This document shows, piece by piece, positions 416 through 35,944 of a stretch of DNA of 64,000 bases. The DNA lies in NCBI RefSeq assembly GCF_003790525.1, contig NZ_CP033635.1; one strand, written 5' to 3'. Position 1 is the stretch's first letter; each line of letters opens with the position of its first letter. Below the pieces are notes generated by a model that was not told where the DNA came from, ran no database searches, and worked only from the letters and a program-made list of their open reading frames with translations. The position numbers were made by a program, and so were the translations under genes. Source of the stretch: Escherichia coli (GTDB taxonomy: Bacteria > Pseudomonadota > Gammaproteobacteria > Enterobacterales > Enterobacteriaceae).

Positions 416-1735
416 TTAGTGAGCGCTGGAGGTCACCTGACGACCTGCCGCACGATCCCAGATAATGGCCAGAACCACCATCACCACTGTTGGCATTAAC
501 CACGCCAGACCTTGTTCGGCCAGCGGTAAACGCTGCGCCCAGGACGGTAAGATATCGCTGAATGCAGATGCCTTGATCCCGTCGAGAATACCAAAAAGCA
601 GGCTGATAAACATCGGCGGAGCAATCACGCGGGACGAATTATGCCACCATGAGCGTGTAAAACTTAATACAACCAGTGCGATACACGGCGGATAAATGGC
701 GGTCAACACCGGTACAGAGATCTGAATCAGCTGGCTCAAGCCGAGGTTAGACACCACCATCGAGAAGCCGCCGAGGATAAACACCAGCGTACGATAAGAG
801 AGCGGTACGTACTGGGCGAAGAATTCTGCACAAGCACAGGTCAGGCCAACCGCCGTGACCAGGCAGGCGATGAAGATTAACGCCGCCAGCAGGAAGCTAC
901 CGCCGCCGCCAAAGGTATGCTGAACGTAAGCATGCAGGATCGCCGCACCGTTTGCAGACTGATCGACCAGCGACGCGCTGTCTGAACCCAGACGGAACAG
1001 CGCCAGATACAGCAGAGTCAGACCAACACCCGCCATCAGGCCAGCCCAGACGGTATAACGGGTCAGCAGACGCGCTTCGGTAACGCCACGAGAACGCGCC
1101 GCGTTAACAATAACGATACCAAACACCATTGCGCCCAGCGTATCCATGGTCAGATAGCCGTTGACGAAGCCGTTAGAAAACGCAGCGTTTTGATAAGCCT
1201 CAGTCGCCGTGCTGATAGAACCCGCCGGCCAGATAATTGCGGCAACAGACAGGATGACCAGCGCGATAATTTTCAGCGGCGCAAGGAAGTTGCCCACGGT
1301 ATCCAGCAGCTTGCCCGGATAGAGCGAAACCAGAATAACGATAGCGAAATAAACCAGGCTGTAGATAAACAGCGGCAACGCGGAATCACCCGTCAGCGGC
1401 GCAATGCCCACTTCAAAAGAAACGGTAGCTGTACGCGGCGTAGCGAAAAGCGGCCCCACCGCCAGGTAACACACCGTTGCCAGCAGTACGCCAGCGACTT
1501 TACCGATTGGCGTGCTGAGGCTGTCAACACCGCCGCCAACTTTCGCCAGCGCCACCACCGTTAACACCGGTAGGCCAACGGCAGTAATGAGGAAACCGAA
1601 TGCCGCAGTCCAGACGTGTTCGCCTGCCTGCAAGCCGACCATTGGAGGGAAAATAATGTTACCTGCGCCGACGAACAACGCAAATGTCATAAAGCCCAGA
1701 GCGATGATATCGCGCGATCTTAATTGATGGGTCAT
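416..1735 (-). CDS. brnQ: Branched-chain amino acid transporter BrnQ
   Basis: 439-aa ORF, multi-pass hydrophobic membrane protein ([31 protein letters not shown]...); position next to phoR matches E. coli synteny. Confidence 0.93.
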
Positions 1736-18052: not shown

Positions 18053-19468
18053 TTATTTCAGCCCCAGGGCGGCTTTCATGGTGTAGAAGAGATCGGTCTG
18101 GTCGGTCAGTCCAACGACATTGGCGGCATGTGGGCCATACGCTGCAATACGCAACTGACTGCCGGTATGTTCTTGTGAATCCTCTTCGGAGTTCCCGTAA
18201 CTCATCACCATCACTGCGCCATCTTTGGTATTTAGCGCCTGGGTGAGGCCCGGCGCTTTGGTGTCCGGCGCGACAATCTGGCTGGCGTGGGCGTGATCAG
18301 CGGTGACTATGACCAGCGTGTTGCCATCCTTTTTAGCGAATTCCAGCGCACGTTGTACGGCTTCATCGAGATCGACCGTCTCGCCAATTTGCCCACAAGG
18401 ATTCGCAGCGTGATCCTGTTTATCGATTGATGCACCTTCAACTTGCAGGAAAAAGCCTTTCTCATTTTTACTCAACAATTCAATGGCTTTGTCGGTCATC
18501 TGCGCCAGGGTCGGTACGCTGTCATTACGTTGCGGATTAGGCGTACAGGTAACTGCGGGCTTGTCGATATTGCCGTGGTACGTTGCTTTCGGTCCTAGCC
18601 AGCGCACTGGCATATTGCCGTCAGCAAACAGTCCTAATAGGGGTTTTTGCTGATTCGCTTCCGTCACCGAATTCAGTGAGGCAGCATCACTCACCAACTG
18701 ATAACCACGCGCCTGTGCCTGTTCACGCAGCGTTTTTCCCTGCCATTCACCGGCGGTTGCCGTTTCAGCAAAGGTTTTTGCGCCGCCGCCAAGCGTAACA
18801 TCGGCACGGGCGTTAAGCAGCTGTTCGGTAATCGATCCTTTTCCGCCTTTTTCCAGAGCGTTACCCGGACATTTTTCACTGGTCGCGCTCGGACCGTAGC
18901 ATTTGCGCGAGGTCACATGCGCCACCAGCGCAGCGGGCGTGGCATCCTGCAACTCTGCGGTAGAAACGTTACCGGTCGCCAGACCTGCGGCTTTTGCCAT
19001 TTCCAGAATCGTTGGGTGATCTTTTTCGTGAATATCGATGCCCAGCGCGCCGTTATAGGTTTTGACACCAGTTGACCAGGCGGTTGCTGATGCAGCCGAG
19101 TCGGTGACGTAGTCCGGTTTGCCGGTTTTTTTATTCAGCGCATAGTGAGTGTATTGCCCGGTAAGCGGTAAGGCATCGATACCTTTAAAAAAGCCGCCCG
19201 CACCTTCGGCATAATTGCGTGCGGCAGTAATTTCCGAGTCCCCCATCCCATCGCCAATCAGCAAAATAATATTTTTTGCAGGTTTATCGCTAAGAGAATC
19301 ACGCAGAGCGGCGGTCTGATCACCCGTTAAGCGGCGAGCACCGCCGGGCGCAGTAATATCGCCCTGAGCAGCCCGGTTTTCCAGAACAGGCATTTCTGGT
19401 GTCCGGGCTTTTGTCACAGGGGAAAACAGTAACGGTAAGAGTGCCAGTGCAATAGTGCTTTGTTTCAC
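18053..19468 (-). CDS. phoA: Alkaline phosphatase
   Basis: 471-aa ORF starting with GTG; [15 protein letters not shown] signal peptide; active-site region [12 protein letters not shown]. Confidence 0.97.
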
Positions 19469-19529
19469 TTTATTTTCTCCATGTACAAATACATTAAAAA
19501 TAAAAACAAAGCGACTATAAGTCTCGGCC

Positions 19530-19547
19530 GTGACAGCTTTATGACAG
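19530..19547 (-). promoter_or_regulatory. Pho box in the phoA promoter
   Basis: Minus-strand ctgtcataaagctgtcac (CTGTCAT direct repeats) upstream of phoA. Confidence 0.8.
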
Positions 19548-19567
19548 CTGTTGAAAAGATTAACTTT

Positions 19568-19828
19568 TTACTGACGAGGATGCTTCAATAACTTCTTTAC
19601 ATAATTGCGCAGCAGCTCCGTATCGTCGTCAGGAATGCTGGCATCGGGCTTTACCTCGTACAGCGCCCCCTCTACCTGATCAATCAACCTCTGTTGGTCA
19701 TTTTGCGCCATATTGCGAAGCATTGCAGTGACGATAATCTCCAAAGCTTCTACCTGCGCACACAGTTCTTTCGACTCTTCTTCTTTTTGGGCAAGCTTAA
19801 ATAACAACTCAGCAATGAGATTTTTCAT
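19568..19828 (-). CDS. iraP: Anti-adapter protein IraP (YaiB)
   Basis: 86-aa [40 protein letters not shown]...; coiled-coil small protein. Confidence 0.85.
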
Positions 19829-20290
19829 GTCTGTATTTCCTTATCCAAAGTATGGAGAAGTTAACATTATGTTTCACAACTTCATAGTGTCTGGAAGTAT
19901 TATTTTTATGACAAAGGAAATACTTTGCGCAAATATTTTTTGTTTGATTACCAGCGAAACGTTTCTCTTATTTTAATAATTACCCACACAAAATATAGGC
20001 TTTTAATTATCAACCTTTATTATAAATAAAAGTTATGAAATATATTCTCTTCGTTAACTTATAATTAAGAGAAAAAAACTCACTGCATGGCCATACAAGC
20101 CAGGAATAAATTAGCTTCCCGTTCATCATTTTTGTGATCTTGCGCACATCATTGAGATAACGCACTTTCTTCACCAGTACGTTGCACGCTTTGTCAGCAG
20201 AAGATTGCAACATTCTGTCAGAAGGCCGCGAATCCCCCGTTTTGTCGTGGTAATGTATGCACTTTGTGTTAGACGGGATAGGTTTTTAAG

Positions 20291-21385
20291 ATGGAAAAAC
20301 TGCGGGTAGGAATCGTTTTTGGTGGTAAATCAGCGGAACATGAAGTGTCTCTGCAATCGGCAAAAAACATTGTCGATGCCATTGATAAAAGTCGCTTCGA
20401 CGTTGTGCTGCTGGGCATTGATAAACAAGGGCAATGGCACGTCAGCGATGCCAGCAATTATCTGCTAAATGCAGACGATCCTGCCCATATTGCGTTGCGC
20501 CCTTCGGCGACCAGCCTTGCGCAGGTGCCTGGTAAACATGAACATCAGCTTATCGACGCGCAAAACGGTCAGCCGTTGCCGACGGTGGATGTCATTTTCC
20601 CGATTGTCCACGGTACGCTGGGCGAAGATGGTTCCTTGCAGGGAATGCTGCGGGTCGCCAATTTACCGTTTGTAGGTTCTGATGTTCTGGCTTCAGCGGC
20701 CTGTATGGATAAAGATGTCACCAAACGTCTGCTGCGCGATGCCGGGCTGAACATTGCGCCATTTATTACCCTGACGCGCGCTAATCGTCACAACATCAGT
20801 TTTGCCGAAGTGGAGTCTAAACTGGGGTTACCGCTGTTTGTAAAACCGGCTAATCAGGGCTCTTCTGTTGGTGTCAGCAAAGTAACCAGTGAAGAACAGT
20901 ACGCAATTGCCGTCGATCTGGCGTTCGAGTTCGACCATAAAGTGATCGTTGAGCAAGGGATCAAAGGTCGTGAGATCGAATGCGCAGTTCTGGGCAACGA
21001 CAATCCGCAAGCCAGCACCTGTGGCGAGATCGTACTCACCAGCGATTTCTATGCCTACGACACCAAGTACATTGACGAAGATGGCGCGAAAGTGGTTGTT
21101 CCGGCAGCCATTGCGCCAGAAATCAACGATAAGATCCGGGCGATTGCCGTTCAGGCCTATCAAACGTTGGGATGCGCAGGCATGGCGCGTGTAGACGTGT
21201 TTTTAACCCCAGAGAACGAAGTGGTGATCAACGAGATCAACACCCTGCCTGGCTTCACCAACATCAGTATGTATCCGAAGTTGTGGCAAGCCAGCGGTCT
21301 GGGTTACACCGACCTGATCACGCGTTTGATTGAGCTGGCGCTGGAGCGTCACGCTGCAGATAACGCACTGAAAACCACAATGTAA
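20291..21385 (+). CDS. ddlA: D-alanine--D-alanine ligase A
   Basis: 364-aa [29 protein letters not shown]...; ATP-grasp ligase. Confidence 0.95.
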
Positions 21386-26780: not shown

Positions 26781-29702
<2,922 letters not shown>

Positions 29703-30190
29703 TTGTCATCCCTCCTCAGGGACGTAATAAGTTGATCCATCAATTATCAATGCATAGAAAACATATTATGTTTCGCGCTAACGATTATGCGGCGTTATTG
29801 AGGAATGGTTCAATTATTCTTTCCCCGAAGTCCGGTTACGGACATATATAAAGCACGGAGGAACACACAAAGAAAAAATTGATAAAAGCTTAATGTTTCA
29901 ACAAGTTAACAGGAGTTCCATTTTTAAAGCATATGCATTTAAAATATCAAACACACAAACCAGACAAATAATCTATCAATAACCAATGAACTTTAAATCA
30001 TTCCGTTTTTGAAAACGTCACCAAATCCCCAAAAACAATAATCTATAGCTATAAATAAAAATTAAAAATATTTTCAATGAATATAAATTTATTGCTATTT
30101 CTATTACAAAGATGTCCTGACCTCTCATTCATTCTCTTCTTGTCAACATCGCGACAACTTTCGTAAAACATCCCCACCCTGCTTCAGGTA
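29703..30190. promoter_or_regulatory. AT-rich divergent yaiT / hemB promoter region
   Basis: About 490 bp of visibly AT-rich non-coding DNA with A/T tracts between divergent genes. Confidence 0.5.
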
Positions 30191-30227
30191 TACTATGCCC
30201 CTCGATTCCACAAACATCAGGCAGACC

Positions 30228-34657: not shown

Positions 34658-34714
34658 GATTGTCTGCTCCCCTGTCTTGTTATGGGAGCAGTATTCAGGA
34701 ATAAAAACATTCAT

Positions 34715-35272
34715 TAAAAGAATTAGTCGTTATCGCACAGATGATTTTATTCTTAGCAAAAAAACGGCAAAGGAAAGATTAAATATGCAATTACTCCGTT
34801 CTAACAATTGGGAAAATTACTACACTTCATTTTAGTGATGCATAAACAACCACATTACGAGATTTATTACTTCATTATTTCTATCAATATCAATACATAT
34901 AATAAAACTATTATATTCGCATTGTATATATCACTGTATCATTCTCAATCACTCGCATATTACATTCACATAATGTATATAAACAATACTTGTTCACAGA
35001 ACATATTTTTTAAATGCAATTAATTGACAAACTAAATCACATCTAAATACAATGTATAAAACAAAATAACTATACATACCAAACATACAAACACTTAACA
35101 TATGAATTGCATAAAAACATTACCCAGTCGAACCTCCGGGTCTGAAAGCCCTTGCTTTTCAGTTATTAGCAACATTTAACATTTATAAATTAACATCTGG
35201 CTGCGCCAGAGATTACGTCTCTGAGTGCATCGTTGTGCTTGTAGTATAATAAATAAAATGGAGTGTCATTAA
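34715..35272. promoter_or_regulatory. Very AT-rich intergenic region (divergent tauA / yaiS promoters)
   Basis: About 560 bp dominated by A/T with numerous ATA/TAT/CATA repeats; tataat-like -10 near 35243-35248 upstream of yaiS. Confidence 0.5.
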
Positions 35273-35944
35273 GTGGATAAGGTTTTAGATTCAGCCCTCC
35301 TTTCTTCGGCAAATAAAAGAAAGGGTATCCTTGCTATTGGCGCACATCCTGACGATATAGAATTAGGCTGTGGCGCATCGCTTGCTCGTCTTGCGCAAAA
35401 AGGAATTTATATCGCAGCCGTGGTGATGACTACCGGCAACTCTGGCACAGATGGAATAATCGATCGCCATGAAGAATCGCGCAACGCCCTAAAGATATTA
35501 GGGTGCCACCAAACTATTCATCTTAATTTTGCTGACACCCGCGCTCATTTACAGCTCAATGATATGATTTCCGCCCTGGAAGACATCATTAAAAATCAAA
35601 TTCCTTCTGATGTTGAAATCATGCGGGTATATACCATGCATGATGCTGACCGCCATCAGGATCATCTTGCAGTCTATCAAGCCTCAATGGTTGCCTGCCG
35701 AACTATTCCACAAATTCTCGGCTACGAAACCCCAAGTACCTGGCTTTCATTTATGCCTCAGGTTTTTGAATCCGTTAAAGAAGAATATTTCACAGTCAAA
35801 CTTGCTGCATTAAAAAAACATAAAAGCCAGGAACGACGCGATTATATGCGTCATGATCGCCTGCGTGCAGTTGCACAATTTCGCGGGCAACAGGTCAATA
35901 GCGATCTGGGTGAAGGCTTTGTAATTCATAAAATGATTCTTTGA
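35273..35944 (+). CDS. yaiS: LmbE/PIG-L family N-acetylglucosaminyl deacetylase YaiS
   Basis: ORF with GTG start; N-terminal AHPDDIELGCG motif typical of LmbE-like deacetylases; true start uncertain. Confidence 0.8.
   Translation: MDKVLDSALLSSANKRKGILAIGAHPDDIELGCGASLARLAQKGIYIAAVVMTTGNSGTDGIIDRHEESRNALKILGCHQTIHLNFADTRAHLQLNDMISALEDIIKNQIPSDVEIMRVYTMHDADRHQDHLAVYQASMVACRTIPQILGYETPSTWLSFMPQVFESVKEEYFTVKLAALKKHKSQERRDYMRHDRLRAVAQFRGQQVNSDLGEGFVIHKMIL

Follow-up and report, generated by a model that had tools for sequence, protein, structure and literature searches.

The gap between the divergently transcribed genes iraP and ddlA of Escherichia coli is very probably a divergent control region of composite make-up and not a gene; regions of this kind are known, and the locus has been well studied. 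What is new here is evolutionary: the length and AT richness of the gap most likely go back to the deletion of two genes, which brought three regulatory segments together. Three ancestral intergenic segments would thereby have been joined after the loss of the two genes. The first is the ddlA promoter and leader (~20188-20290). The second would be the promoter of an mdtG-like transporter gene of the major facilitator superfamily (MFS), with the layout of a class II CRP promoter (20101-20150). The third would comprise ~240 bp of iraP upstream DNA (19829 to ~20068) with its two transcription starts, a palindrome and an inverted repeat. The gap encodes no independent RNA or protein. All positions refer to the window, which is the whole stretch of 64,000 nucleotides that was analyzed, and the features of the gap are collected in Table 1.

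The gap occupies positions 19829-20290 (462 bp, G+C 0.344), which bears out the initial annotation of a non-coding, AT-rich region between divergent iraP and ddlA. Its G+C content of 34.4% compares with 0.519 (51.9%) for the window; the segment 19968-20187 has a value of 0.31, and the lowest 200-bp interval inside the gap one of 0.255. The A/T-run string that had been quoted from it, ttattataaataaaagttatgaaatatattc, is found at 20019-20049. The two short ORFs that had been named also exist, at 19713-19976 (+) and 20010-20213 (-), the former being an 87-aa frame whose TTG start falls within iraP, antisense to it. Calling the gap unusually long was an overstatement. The first 50 kb of the window hold eight divergent gaps, and this one ranks third by length, behind tauA/yaiS (615 bp) and autotransporter/hemB (492 bp), and third again by AT richness (G+C 0.344, vs 0.301 and 0.329 for the same two gaps). 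Throughout the 64 kb, 200-bp intervals whose G+C does not exceed 0.30 occur only within these three gaps. The iraP–ddlA gap is real and non-random, yet it is what long divergent control regions of this genome typically look like.

A 901-bp stretch around the gap is present in 5422 of 5426 complete E. coli genomes and is 100% identical to E. coli SMS-3-5 and at least 11 other genomes among the matches listed. The IS3 element of SMS-3-5 is absent from the window, so that the two are offset beyond ~29 kb. Published K-12 positions were converted by subtracting them from 421214 (NC_000913.3) or from 420438 (U00096.2), and both conversions were checked by the start codons of iraP and ddlA.

Table 1. 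Features and alignment blocks of the iraP–ddlA region, in window coordinates. The last column gives the share of variable alignment columns among eight Escherichia sequences, with P values where calculated.
Feature	Position	Strand	Basis	Variable columns
iraP CDS (anti-adaptor protein IraP, 86 aa)	19568..19828	-	ORF list and RefSeq annotation of identical SMS-3-5 stretch	
iraP promoter and leader	19835-19935			21%
Proximal iraP transcription start, 23-nt leader	19851	-	Cappable-seq, SMRT-Cappable-seq, Kim 2012	
Distal iraP transcription start, 67-nt leader	19895	-	Cappable-seq, SMRT-Cappable-seq	
iraP distal core promoter TTGCGCAAAGTATTTCCTTTGTCATAAAAATAATACT, AT-rich stretch just ahead of start	19896..19935	-	Conservation	
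Spacer	19936-19951			82%
Palindrome block	19952-19978			14%
Palindromic operator-like element, AGCGAAACGTTTCTCT (+), GAGAAACGTTTCGCT (iraP strand)	19953..19968	.	Conservation	
Predicted NagC site aataattacccacacaaaatata	19976..19998	.	Published in-silico prediction	
Stretch with predicted NagC site	19979-20005			67%
AT-rich block, candidate ancestral iraP upstream DNA	20006..20068	.	Alignment with Salmonella, Citrobacter, C. koseri	32%, P=1.4e-4
67-codon ORF, PGAP hypothetical protein WP_001317654.1, judged not a gene	20010..20213	-	ORF list	
Fast-evolving junction, likely scar of transporter-CDS deletion	20069..20100	.	Transporter-leader homology ends here	88%
CRP-box block, probable relic CRP-dependent promoter of lost mdtG-like MFS transporter gene	20101..20150	-	Orthology, conservation	22%, P=1.7e-6
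Variable spacer, possible remnant of lost extensin-like gene's 3' flank	20151..20187	.	Similarity and variability	70%
ddlA promoter and 28-nt leader (ddlA-proximal block)	20188..20290	+	SMRT-Cappable-seq start, conservation	16%
ddlA CDS (D-alanine--D-alanine ligase A)	20291..21385	+	ORF list and RefSeq annotation of identical SMS-3-5 stretch	

The origin of the gap becomes apparent from gene content across relatives. The comparison set consisted of 80 iraP loci, one genome per species, with E. fergusonii left out. The spacing between ddlA and iraP is 450-465 bp in all eight Escherichia lineages, ~2.4 kb in Salmonella, Enterobacter, Lelliottia, Leclercia, Kosakonia and others, and ~1.6-1.75 kb in a further group. 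In most other Enterobacteriaceae the extra DNA holds one or both of two genes, one of them extensin-like and the other an mdtG-like gene for an MFS transporter; Escherichia has neither. The extensin-like product is 227-237 aa long and carries an Extensin-like_C domain. The transporter is an MFS protein of ~400 aa which scores 543 bits against the MdtG model, just below the cutoff of 571. Some genera have retained only one of the two genes, and in Klebsiella and C. koseri another gene lies upstream of iraP. In most other Enterobacteriaceae, the transporter promoter lies between the extensin-like gene and the transporter gene. A blastx comparison of the E. coli, E. albertii and Citrobacter gaps with the transporter and extensin-like proteins found no remnants (all E-values >0.01). 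Because no pseudogene fragments are recognizable, the deletion is deduced from synteny and from the orphan promoter that it would have left behind.

This promoter corresponds to the central block of the gap, which reads TGTGCGCAAGATCACAAAAATGATGAACGGGAAGCTAATTTATTCCTGG on the iraP strand. It contains a CRP box, TGTGCGCAAGATCACA (core 20133-20148, center 20140.5), followed by AAAAATGATGAACGGGAAGCTAATTTATTCCTGG. The box matches the consensus at 9 of 10 core positions, with one core mismatch in Escherichia. Of 59 loci that keep the transporter gene, 40 have a CRP box ~130 bp upstream of the transporter ATG, and in 34 it is a perfect TGTGA-N6-TCACA. In a comparison anchored on the CRP box, the block shares with the transporter promoters TGTGA-N6-TCACA followed by AAA(A/T)ATGATGA(A/C)(C/T)GGGAAG(A/C)TAA; the sequence past the box is AAATATGATGACTGGGAAGATAAAAC in Enterobacter and AAAAATGATGAACAGGAAGACAAAAT in Salmonella. 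A -10-like hexamer (TAAAAT, TAAAAC or CAAAAT in other genera) occupies one fixed register, 28-33 nt past the center of the box. Since box, flank and hexamer register are orthologous to those of the transporter promoters, the Escherichia block is best explained as the promoter of the lost transporter gene. The same combination is seen in three Citrobacter species and in C. amalonaticus S646, where the transporter CDS has also been lost and the CRP-box block has also been kept. The literature found on this locus makes no mention of such an origin for the central CRP/FNR-bound block.

In class II CRP-dependent promoters, for instance galP1, CRP is centered near -41.5. The block resembles these promoters in having a near-consensus box and a -10-like hexamer in one register. 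It differs from them in that the gene it originally drove is gone and the putative Escherichia hexamer is weak and degenerate (TAATTT, or GAATTT in two lineages). Within E. coli the block is present in 5420 of 5426 complete genomes. Identity within E. coli, scored in 50-nt blocks, did not discriminate between parts of the gap, and low-complexity filtering took out the AT-rich block.

Outside Escherichia, blastn matches only the ends of the gap, ~82 bp by ddlA and 107-139 bp by iraP, and for this reason the center looked genus-specific. The lack of a blastn match for ~19968-20208, together with the low G+C of 19968-20187, fits an alternative in which the AT-rich center is horizontally acquired DNA, specific to Escherichia, silenced by H-NS and without an ancestral counterpart. 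FNR occupancy at ddlA/iraP is higher in a strain without hns and stpA, which suggests H-NS binding there. However, motif-anchored alignments show most of the center to be homologous to the transporter promoter or to iraP upstream DNA of other genera, and H-NS binding is compatible with a composite of relics too. In alignment A2 (Salmonella, several Citrobacter and C. koseri), the iraP-upstream homology reaches ~20066 and includes GAGAAACGTTTCGCT and the inverted repeat of the AT-rich block. This repeat, CATAA-N7-TTATA at 20019-20038, is accompanied by the motif ATAAGTTAA; outside Escherichia it reads CATAA-N7-TTATG, vs the TTATA arm in Escherichia. Only ~70 bp of the gap (20069-20100 and 20151-20187) are left without an assigned counterpart, and these evolve at the neutral rate or faster. 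An acquired island is therefore very improbable.

The rate seen in these two stretches is likely what deletion scars would show, in keeping with the joining of ancestral segments. The homology with the transporter leader ends at the first of them. The second has weak similarity to TAAAGCATAA..., which follows the extensin-like gene in other genera, and it is possibly a remnant of that gene's 3' flank.

Across the eight Escherichia sequences, the gap alternates between conserved islands, in which 14-32% of the columns are variable, and stretches between them, in which 67-88% are (Table 1). The neutral proxy came from the four-fold degenerate positions of the two flanking genes, ddlA and iraP, in these eight genomes; 55% of such positions vary. 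The P values are indicative only, because the blocks were chosen after the alignment had been inspected. Judged by this comparison, the CRP-box block is under purifying selection in Escherichia. From the retention of the box by selection, a continued cis-regulatory role can be argued, and the chances that the relic still works as a cis-regulatory site are about even.

Published experiments have placed two regulators at or near this block. In a Footprint-seq preprint (2026), CRP bound here in vitro with a Kd of 1.2 nM, among the tightest of the previously unknown sites, and the site was assigned to "ddlA / iraP". ChIP-seq of FNR gave a summit at U00096.2 400328 (window 20110), for which 400344 (window 20094) is stated as well, with two FNR motifs at the peak and the known iraP start outside it (Myers et al., 2013). 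The same study classed iraP as directly repressed by FNR, with repression in three expression data sets. The FNR summits lie 30-46 bp from the CRP box, which by our reading is itself a poor FNR site.

If the proposed history is correct, the orphaned CRP box would now face iraP from ~245 bp upstream of the distal iraP start. CRP-family proteins (CRP, FNR) might bind it and modulate iraP, either through a weak upstream promoter that gives an iraP leader of ~270 nt or by acting on the known iraP promoters. The strongest form of this proposal is that iraP has captured the CRP promoter of the lost transporter gene as a third promoter, responsive to carbon source and oxygen and with a leader of ~270 nt; we hold this to be possible but doubtful. 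Among the iraP-sense Cappable-seq entries available for this region, obtained from cells in M9 with 0.2% glucose, there is no start near the position predicted for the relic promoter (~20100). In this glucose medium, however, cAMP-CRP is low.

The box may also have an effect on ddlA. A stricter alternative holds that the conserved box serves ddlA and not iraP, as a far-upstream activator site centered at -122.5. In favor of this, the ddlA start is 122.5 bp from the box and the iraP starts are at least 245 bp away, the Footprint-seq study names both genes for the site, and a sigma-70 ChIP peak labelled ddlA, at window 20173-20222, is higher without oxygen. In other genera, however, the box faces away from ddlA, and in many of them a whole gene lies between the two while the flanking sequence is the same. 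The conserved flank is on the iraP side of the box, whereas the ddlA side is variable, and the FNR-dependent change in expression has been reported for iraP, not for ddlA. Exclusive service to ddlA is thus quite unlikely. SMRT-Cappable-seq records a single ddlA start, at NC_000913.3 400951 (window ~20263), which is preceded by a putative extended -10 element, TGGTAATGT, at 20248-20256. Identity over 20209-20290 is 70-89% across the Enterobacteriaceae loci that carry ddlA.

The Cappable-seq entries for this region contain two strong starts, at U00096.2 400587 (window 19851, relative read score 167.6) and 400543 (window 19895, relative read score 297.7), and a third, weak one at 400561 (window 19877). 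SMRT-Cappable-seq recovered the two strong starts at NC_000913.3 401362 and 401318, respectively, with transcripts from both running on into phoA. An independent study found an iraP start at the same position as the proximal one, window 19851 (Kim, 2012). The distal core promoter is conserved in Escherichia, Salmonella and Citrobacter, and the motif TCATAAAAATAcTAC is found 83 nt ahead of the iraP ATG in many genera; the -10 hexamer within the distal promoter is a putative assignment. The E. coli iraP promoter is reported to be activated by ppGpp/DksA (Bougdour and Gottesman, 2007; Girard et al., 2018). The region described here is the same locus. Its two starts and the AT-rich sequence before the distal one fit a ppGpp-activated promoter, and the published FNR peak falls at the center of the gap (Myers et al., 2013).

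Further upstream, the palindromic element is centered ~65 bp from the distal iraP start. It is invariant across the 8 Escherichia sequences. In most of the 80 loci, including those of Klebsiella and Enterobacter, GAGAAACGTTTCGCT recurs with 0-2 mismatches at 115-133 nt upstream of the iraP ATG. A central CG is typical of LacI-family operators, and the ~16-bp iraP palindrome has one. At 13 of 16 positions it matches the perfect palindrome AGCGAAACGTTTCGCT found just upstream of rbsD in K-12. The latter is presumably the operator of RbsR, a regulator of the LacI/PurR family (Mauzy and Hermodson, 1992). The two elements share AAACGTTTCGCT and differ at three positions in the left arm of the iraP element. 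RbsR or a related LacI-family protein is a candidate to bind at the iraP palindrome. Cra and PurR were also considered as binders and set aside, as the rbsD palindrome is the better match for the conserved half-site CGAAAC; a literature search for iraP with Cra/FruR turned up nothing useful. The neighboring NagC site was predicted in silico in the FITBAR paper (PMC3098098). Conservation lends this prediction no support, because the stretch varies among Escherichia (A1 columns 346-375, 67% variable).

Taken together, the two mapped starts, the family-wide palindrome, the in-vitro CRP site and the FNR peak with its attendant repression support the suggestion of a complex regulation of iraP, largely on the strength of published data. 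The suggestion is plausible because the relic appears to be under selection, is bound tightly by CRP in vitro and lies close to an FNR peak with iraP repression.

The initial annotation also saw room in the gap for a small RNA, a suggestion that was not sustained. An independent small regulatory RNA, encoded on either strand, would have 367 bp at its disposal between the outermost mapped divergent starts, and single-sequence folding of that stretch gave z = -4.1 for the iraP-sense strand and z = -2.0 for the other. Low z-scores are expected here, given AT-rich palindromic DNA with a G+C-rich end attached, and the value of -4.1 is discounted because the helices are not conserved and no transcript runs over the stretch. 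RNAalifold on the eight Escherichia sequences, a set of limited power, returned covariation terms of +1.16 and +1.32 for the two strands, positive values being penalizing. Compensatory changes occur in only 3 of 117 and 5 of 91 predicted pairs, and the helices predicted do not persist through the variable stretches. Conserved RNA structure, for which a covariation analysis had been proposed, therefore finds no support on either strand among these eight sequences. A search of Rfam with E-values up to 10 gave chance-level matches only, the best of them reaching 21 bits vs a gathering score of 80 for a eukaryotic family.

Transcript maps agree with this result. The mapping of transcription starts, also proposed, is available from published K-12 maps, whose entries for this region place iraP starts at 19895, 19877 and 19851 and a ddlA start at ~20263, with no independent one among them. 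The three iraP-sense starts that the Cappable-seq entries give for the gap are all within 67 nt of the iraP ATG, and SMRT-Cappable-seq has only one ddlA start and two iraP starts. The Term-seq entries for this region pass from 399790(-) to 401850(+) with no RNA 3' end in the gap or anywhere else from the ddlA terminator to inside phoA, and no terminator-like site was found in 19400-20500. The Cappable-seq entries cover the iraP-sense strand, so that short ddlA-sense starts are not directly excluded, and against very short transcripts in that sense the data offer just the lack of 3' ends. A scan for the promoter consensus was uninformative, with 3 promoter-like sites vs 2.9 expected in shuffled sequence. 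With only iraP and ddlA starts, no 3' end, no Rfam match and no covariation, an independent small RNA is hardly credible.

A protein-coding alternative is less credible still. The automated NCBI pipeline PGAP calls the 67-codon ORF on the iraP strand as a hypothetical protein, WP_001317654.1, in many E. coli genomes, SMS-3-5 included, and the frame is intact in K-12 and in the window strain. Its start codon, however, is not conserved, being ATG or TTG depending on the lineage; K-12 has ATT at the position of the ATG, and the next candidate there is a TTG. Of 6 non-coli Escherichia lineages, 5 have the frame disrupted, by a 1-nt indel in two and by stop codons in three, E. albertii among the latter. 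Within the ORF, K-12 and the window show 4 differences, each of them altering the encoded amino acid. The translated ORF has no match in Pfam or NCBIfam at E-values up to 0.01, and the curated K-12 record does not contain it. Its only conserved stretch is the CRP-box block, which is conserved as DNA even where the frame of other genera differs. A genuine small-protein gene at this place is thus extremely improbable. Two smaller frames, MMNGKLIYS... inside the CRP block and MKYILFVNL on the ddlA-sense strand, were likewise rejected, as their length and start codon vary by lineage and neither has a Shine-Dalgarno sequence.

A parallel to the composite region is found in Salmonella, where the iraP promoter region contains a pair of PhoP boxes and the leader measures 218 nt (Tu et al., 2006; Zwir et al., 2012, PMC3335776). 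Counted from the iraP ATG, the boxes lie 272 and 178 nt upstream, outside the ~139 bp with a blastn match in E. coli; the looser alignment A2 does span the stretch that contains them. Their positions fit PhoP control of iraP as a Salmonella trait. Both organisms have a conserved iraP core of ~140 bp and a lineage-specific distal module able to give a long leader. The Salmonella module is a PhoP-dependent promoter in the DNA that separates the transporter gene from iraP. In contrast, E. coli has no PhoP boxes there, and its distal module would be the CRP box from the transporter promoter.

IraP sets the survival of RpoS, the sigma factor of the general stress response, and the inputs to iraP therefore decide when E. 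coli commits to its stress response. If the orphaned CRP promoter is active, the locus would represent regulatory rewiring by gene deletion, with a downstream gene inheriting the promoter of its lost neighbor. This would provide a mechanism for the published and unexplained repression of iraP by FNR from more than 200 bp upstream of the known starts. Should promoter capture prove true, cAMP-CRP and FNR would be tied directly to RpoS stability in Escherichia only, as a counterpart to the PhoP-dependent long-leader promoter of Salmonella. If the relic is inert, the analysis would provide only an evolutionary account of a long AT-rich intergenic region, along with grounds for removing a spurious "hypothetical protein" from the automated annotation of E. 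coli genomes.

The iraP-ddlA divergent gap, which the initial annotation had considered unusually long, is surpassed in both length and AT content by two other divergent gaps of the window, tauA/yaiS and autotransporter/hemB. Collinearity with SMS-3-5 is lost past ~29 kb, and the autotransporter and yaiS-like reading frames are listed with their SMS-3-5 counterparts below; these differences place the window in a strain other than the one indicated by its top megablast hit.

Features of the window and of related loci
Feature	Location	Size	Remarks
tauA/yaiS divergent gap	window 34658-35272	615 bp	30.1% G+C; 200-bp minimum 21.5%
autotransporter/hemB divergent gap	window 29703-30194	492 bp	32.9% G+C
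autotransporter ORF	window 26793-29702	969 aa	intact; SMS-3-5 counterpart split by IS3 element
yaiS-like (PIG-L deacetylase) ORF	window 35273-35944		intact; SMS-3-5 counterpart a pseudogene
short ORF, ATG start, MSVAGIAALGSTFALF...	L009 (Citrobacter sp. NCU1) 2590-2700; also L010, L011	~35 codons	directly past relic promoter
imperfect second palindrome copy gtaAAACGTTTCGAGg	L083 (K-12 rbsD upstream DNA) 444-460		~75 bp upstream of perfect AGCGAAACGTTTCGCT

Published genome-wide data sets describe transcription in the gap and on both sides of it. On the ddlA side, sigma-70 ChIP peaks lie at window 20173-20222 (K-12 U00096.2 400216-400265; Myers 2013 supplement); ddlA has its mapped start 40-90 bp farther downstream, at window 20263. 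The peaks are higher in the absence of oxygen (Myers 2013). The predicted start of the relic promoter, the CRP-box block left by a lost mdtG-like transporter gene, and the start of ddlA have their midpoint at ~20181, so the sigma-70 signal could represent a merger of these two promoters. A Rho-dependent termination site has also been mapped antisense inside ddlA, at window 20873 (-), corresponding to K-12 NC_000913.3 400341 (+) (Adams 2021, bicyclomycin table). Its presence implies antisense transcription inside ddlA, heading toward the gap and halted by Rho. On the opposite side, full-length SMRT-Cappable-seq transcripts (window 18053-19895, -) run from both iraP starts through phoA and were flagged as a novel operon in the SMRT-Cappable-seq study; iraP and phoA may thus be partially co-transcribed.

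The operator-like palindrome of the gap, the iraP element, has a counterpart in K-12, where the perfect palindrome AGCGAAACGTTTCGCT adjoins rbsD. The imperfect copy farther upstream, gtaAAACGTTTCGAGg, resembles the iraP element in that each combines one good arm with one degenerate arm.

The genes found upstream of iraP differ widely from one member of the Enterobacteriaceae to another, as exemplified by Salmonella (L013 and L016) and Klebsiella (L076 and L082) among the fetched iraP loci. Extensin-like and MFS genes are found there in varying combinations: none, one or both. The Citrobacter species that carry the short ORF past the relic promoter no longer have the transporter gene. Another arrangement is found in Klebsiella and C. 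koseri, in which an MFS gene and then a LacI-type regulator gene stand upstream of iraP instead, and ddlA is absent within 3 kb of iraP. One fetched locus, L070 (CACSKA010000001.1), is titled 'Chryseobacterium sp. 18061' and has an enterobacterial ddlA / MFS transporter / iraP arrangement; its CRP-like box and spacing are identical to those of L071 ('Citrobacter sp. 18056'), and the assembly probably bears a wrong label or contains contaminating DNA. Across the family, the interval upstream of iraP looks like a hotspot of rearrangement.
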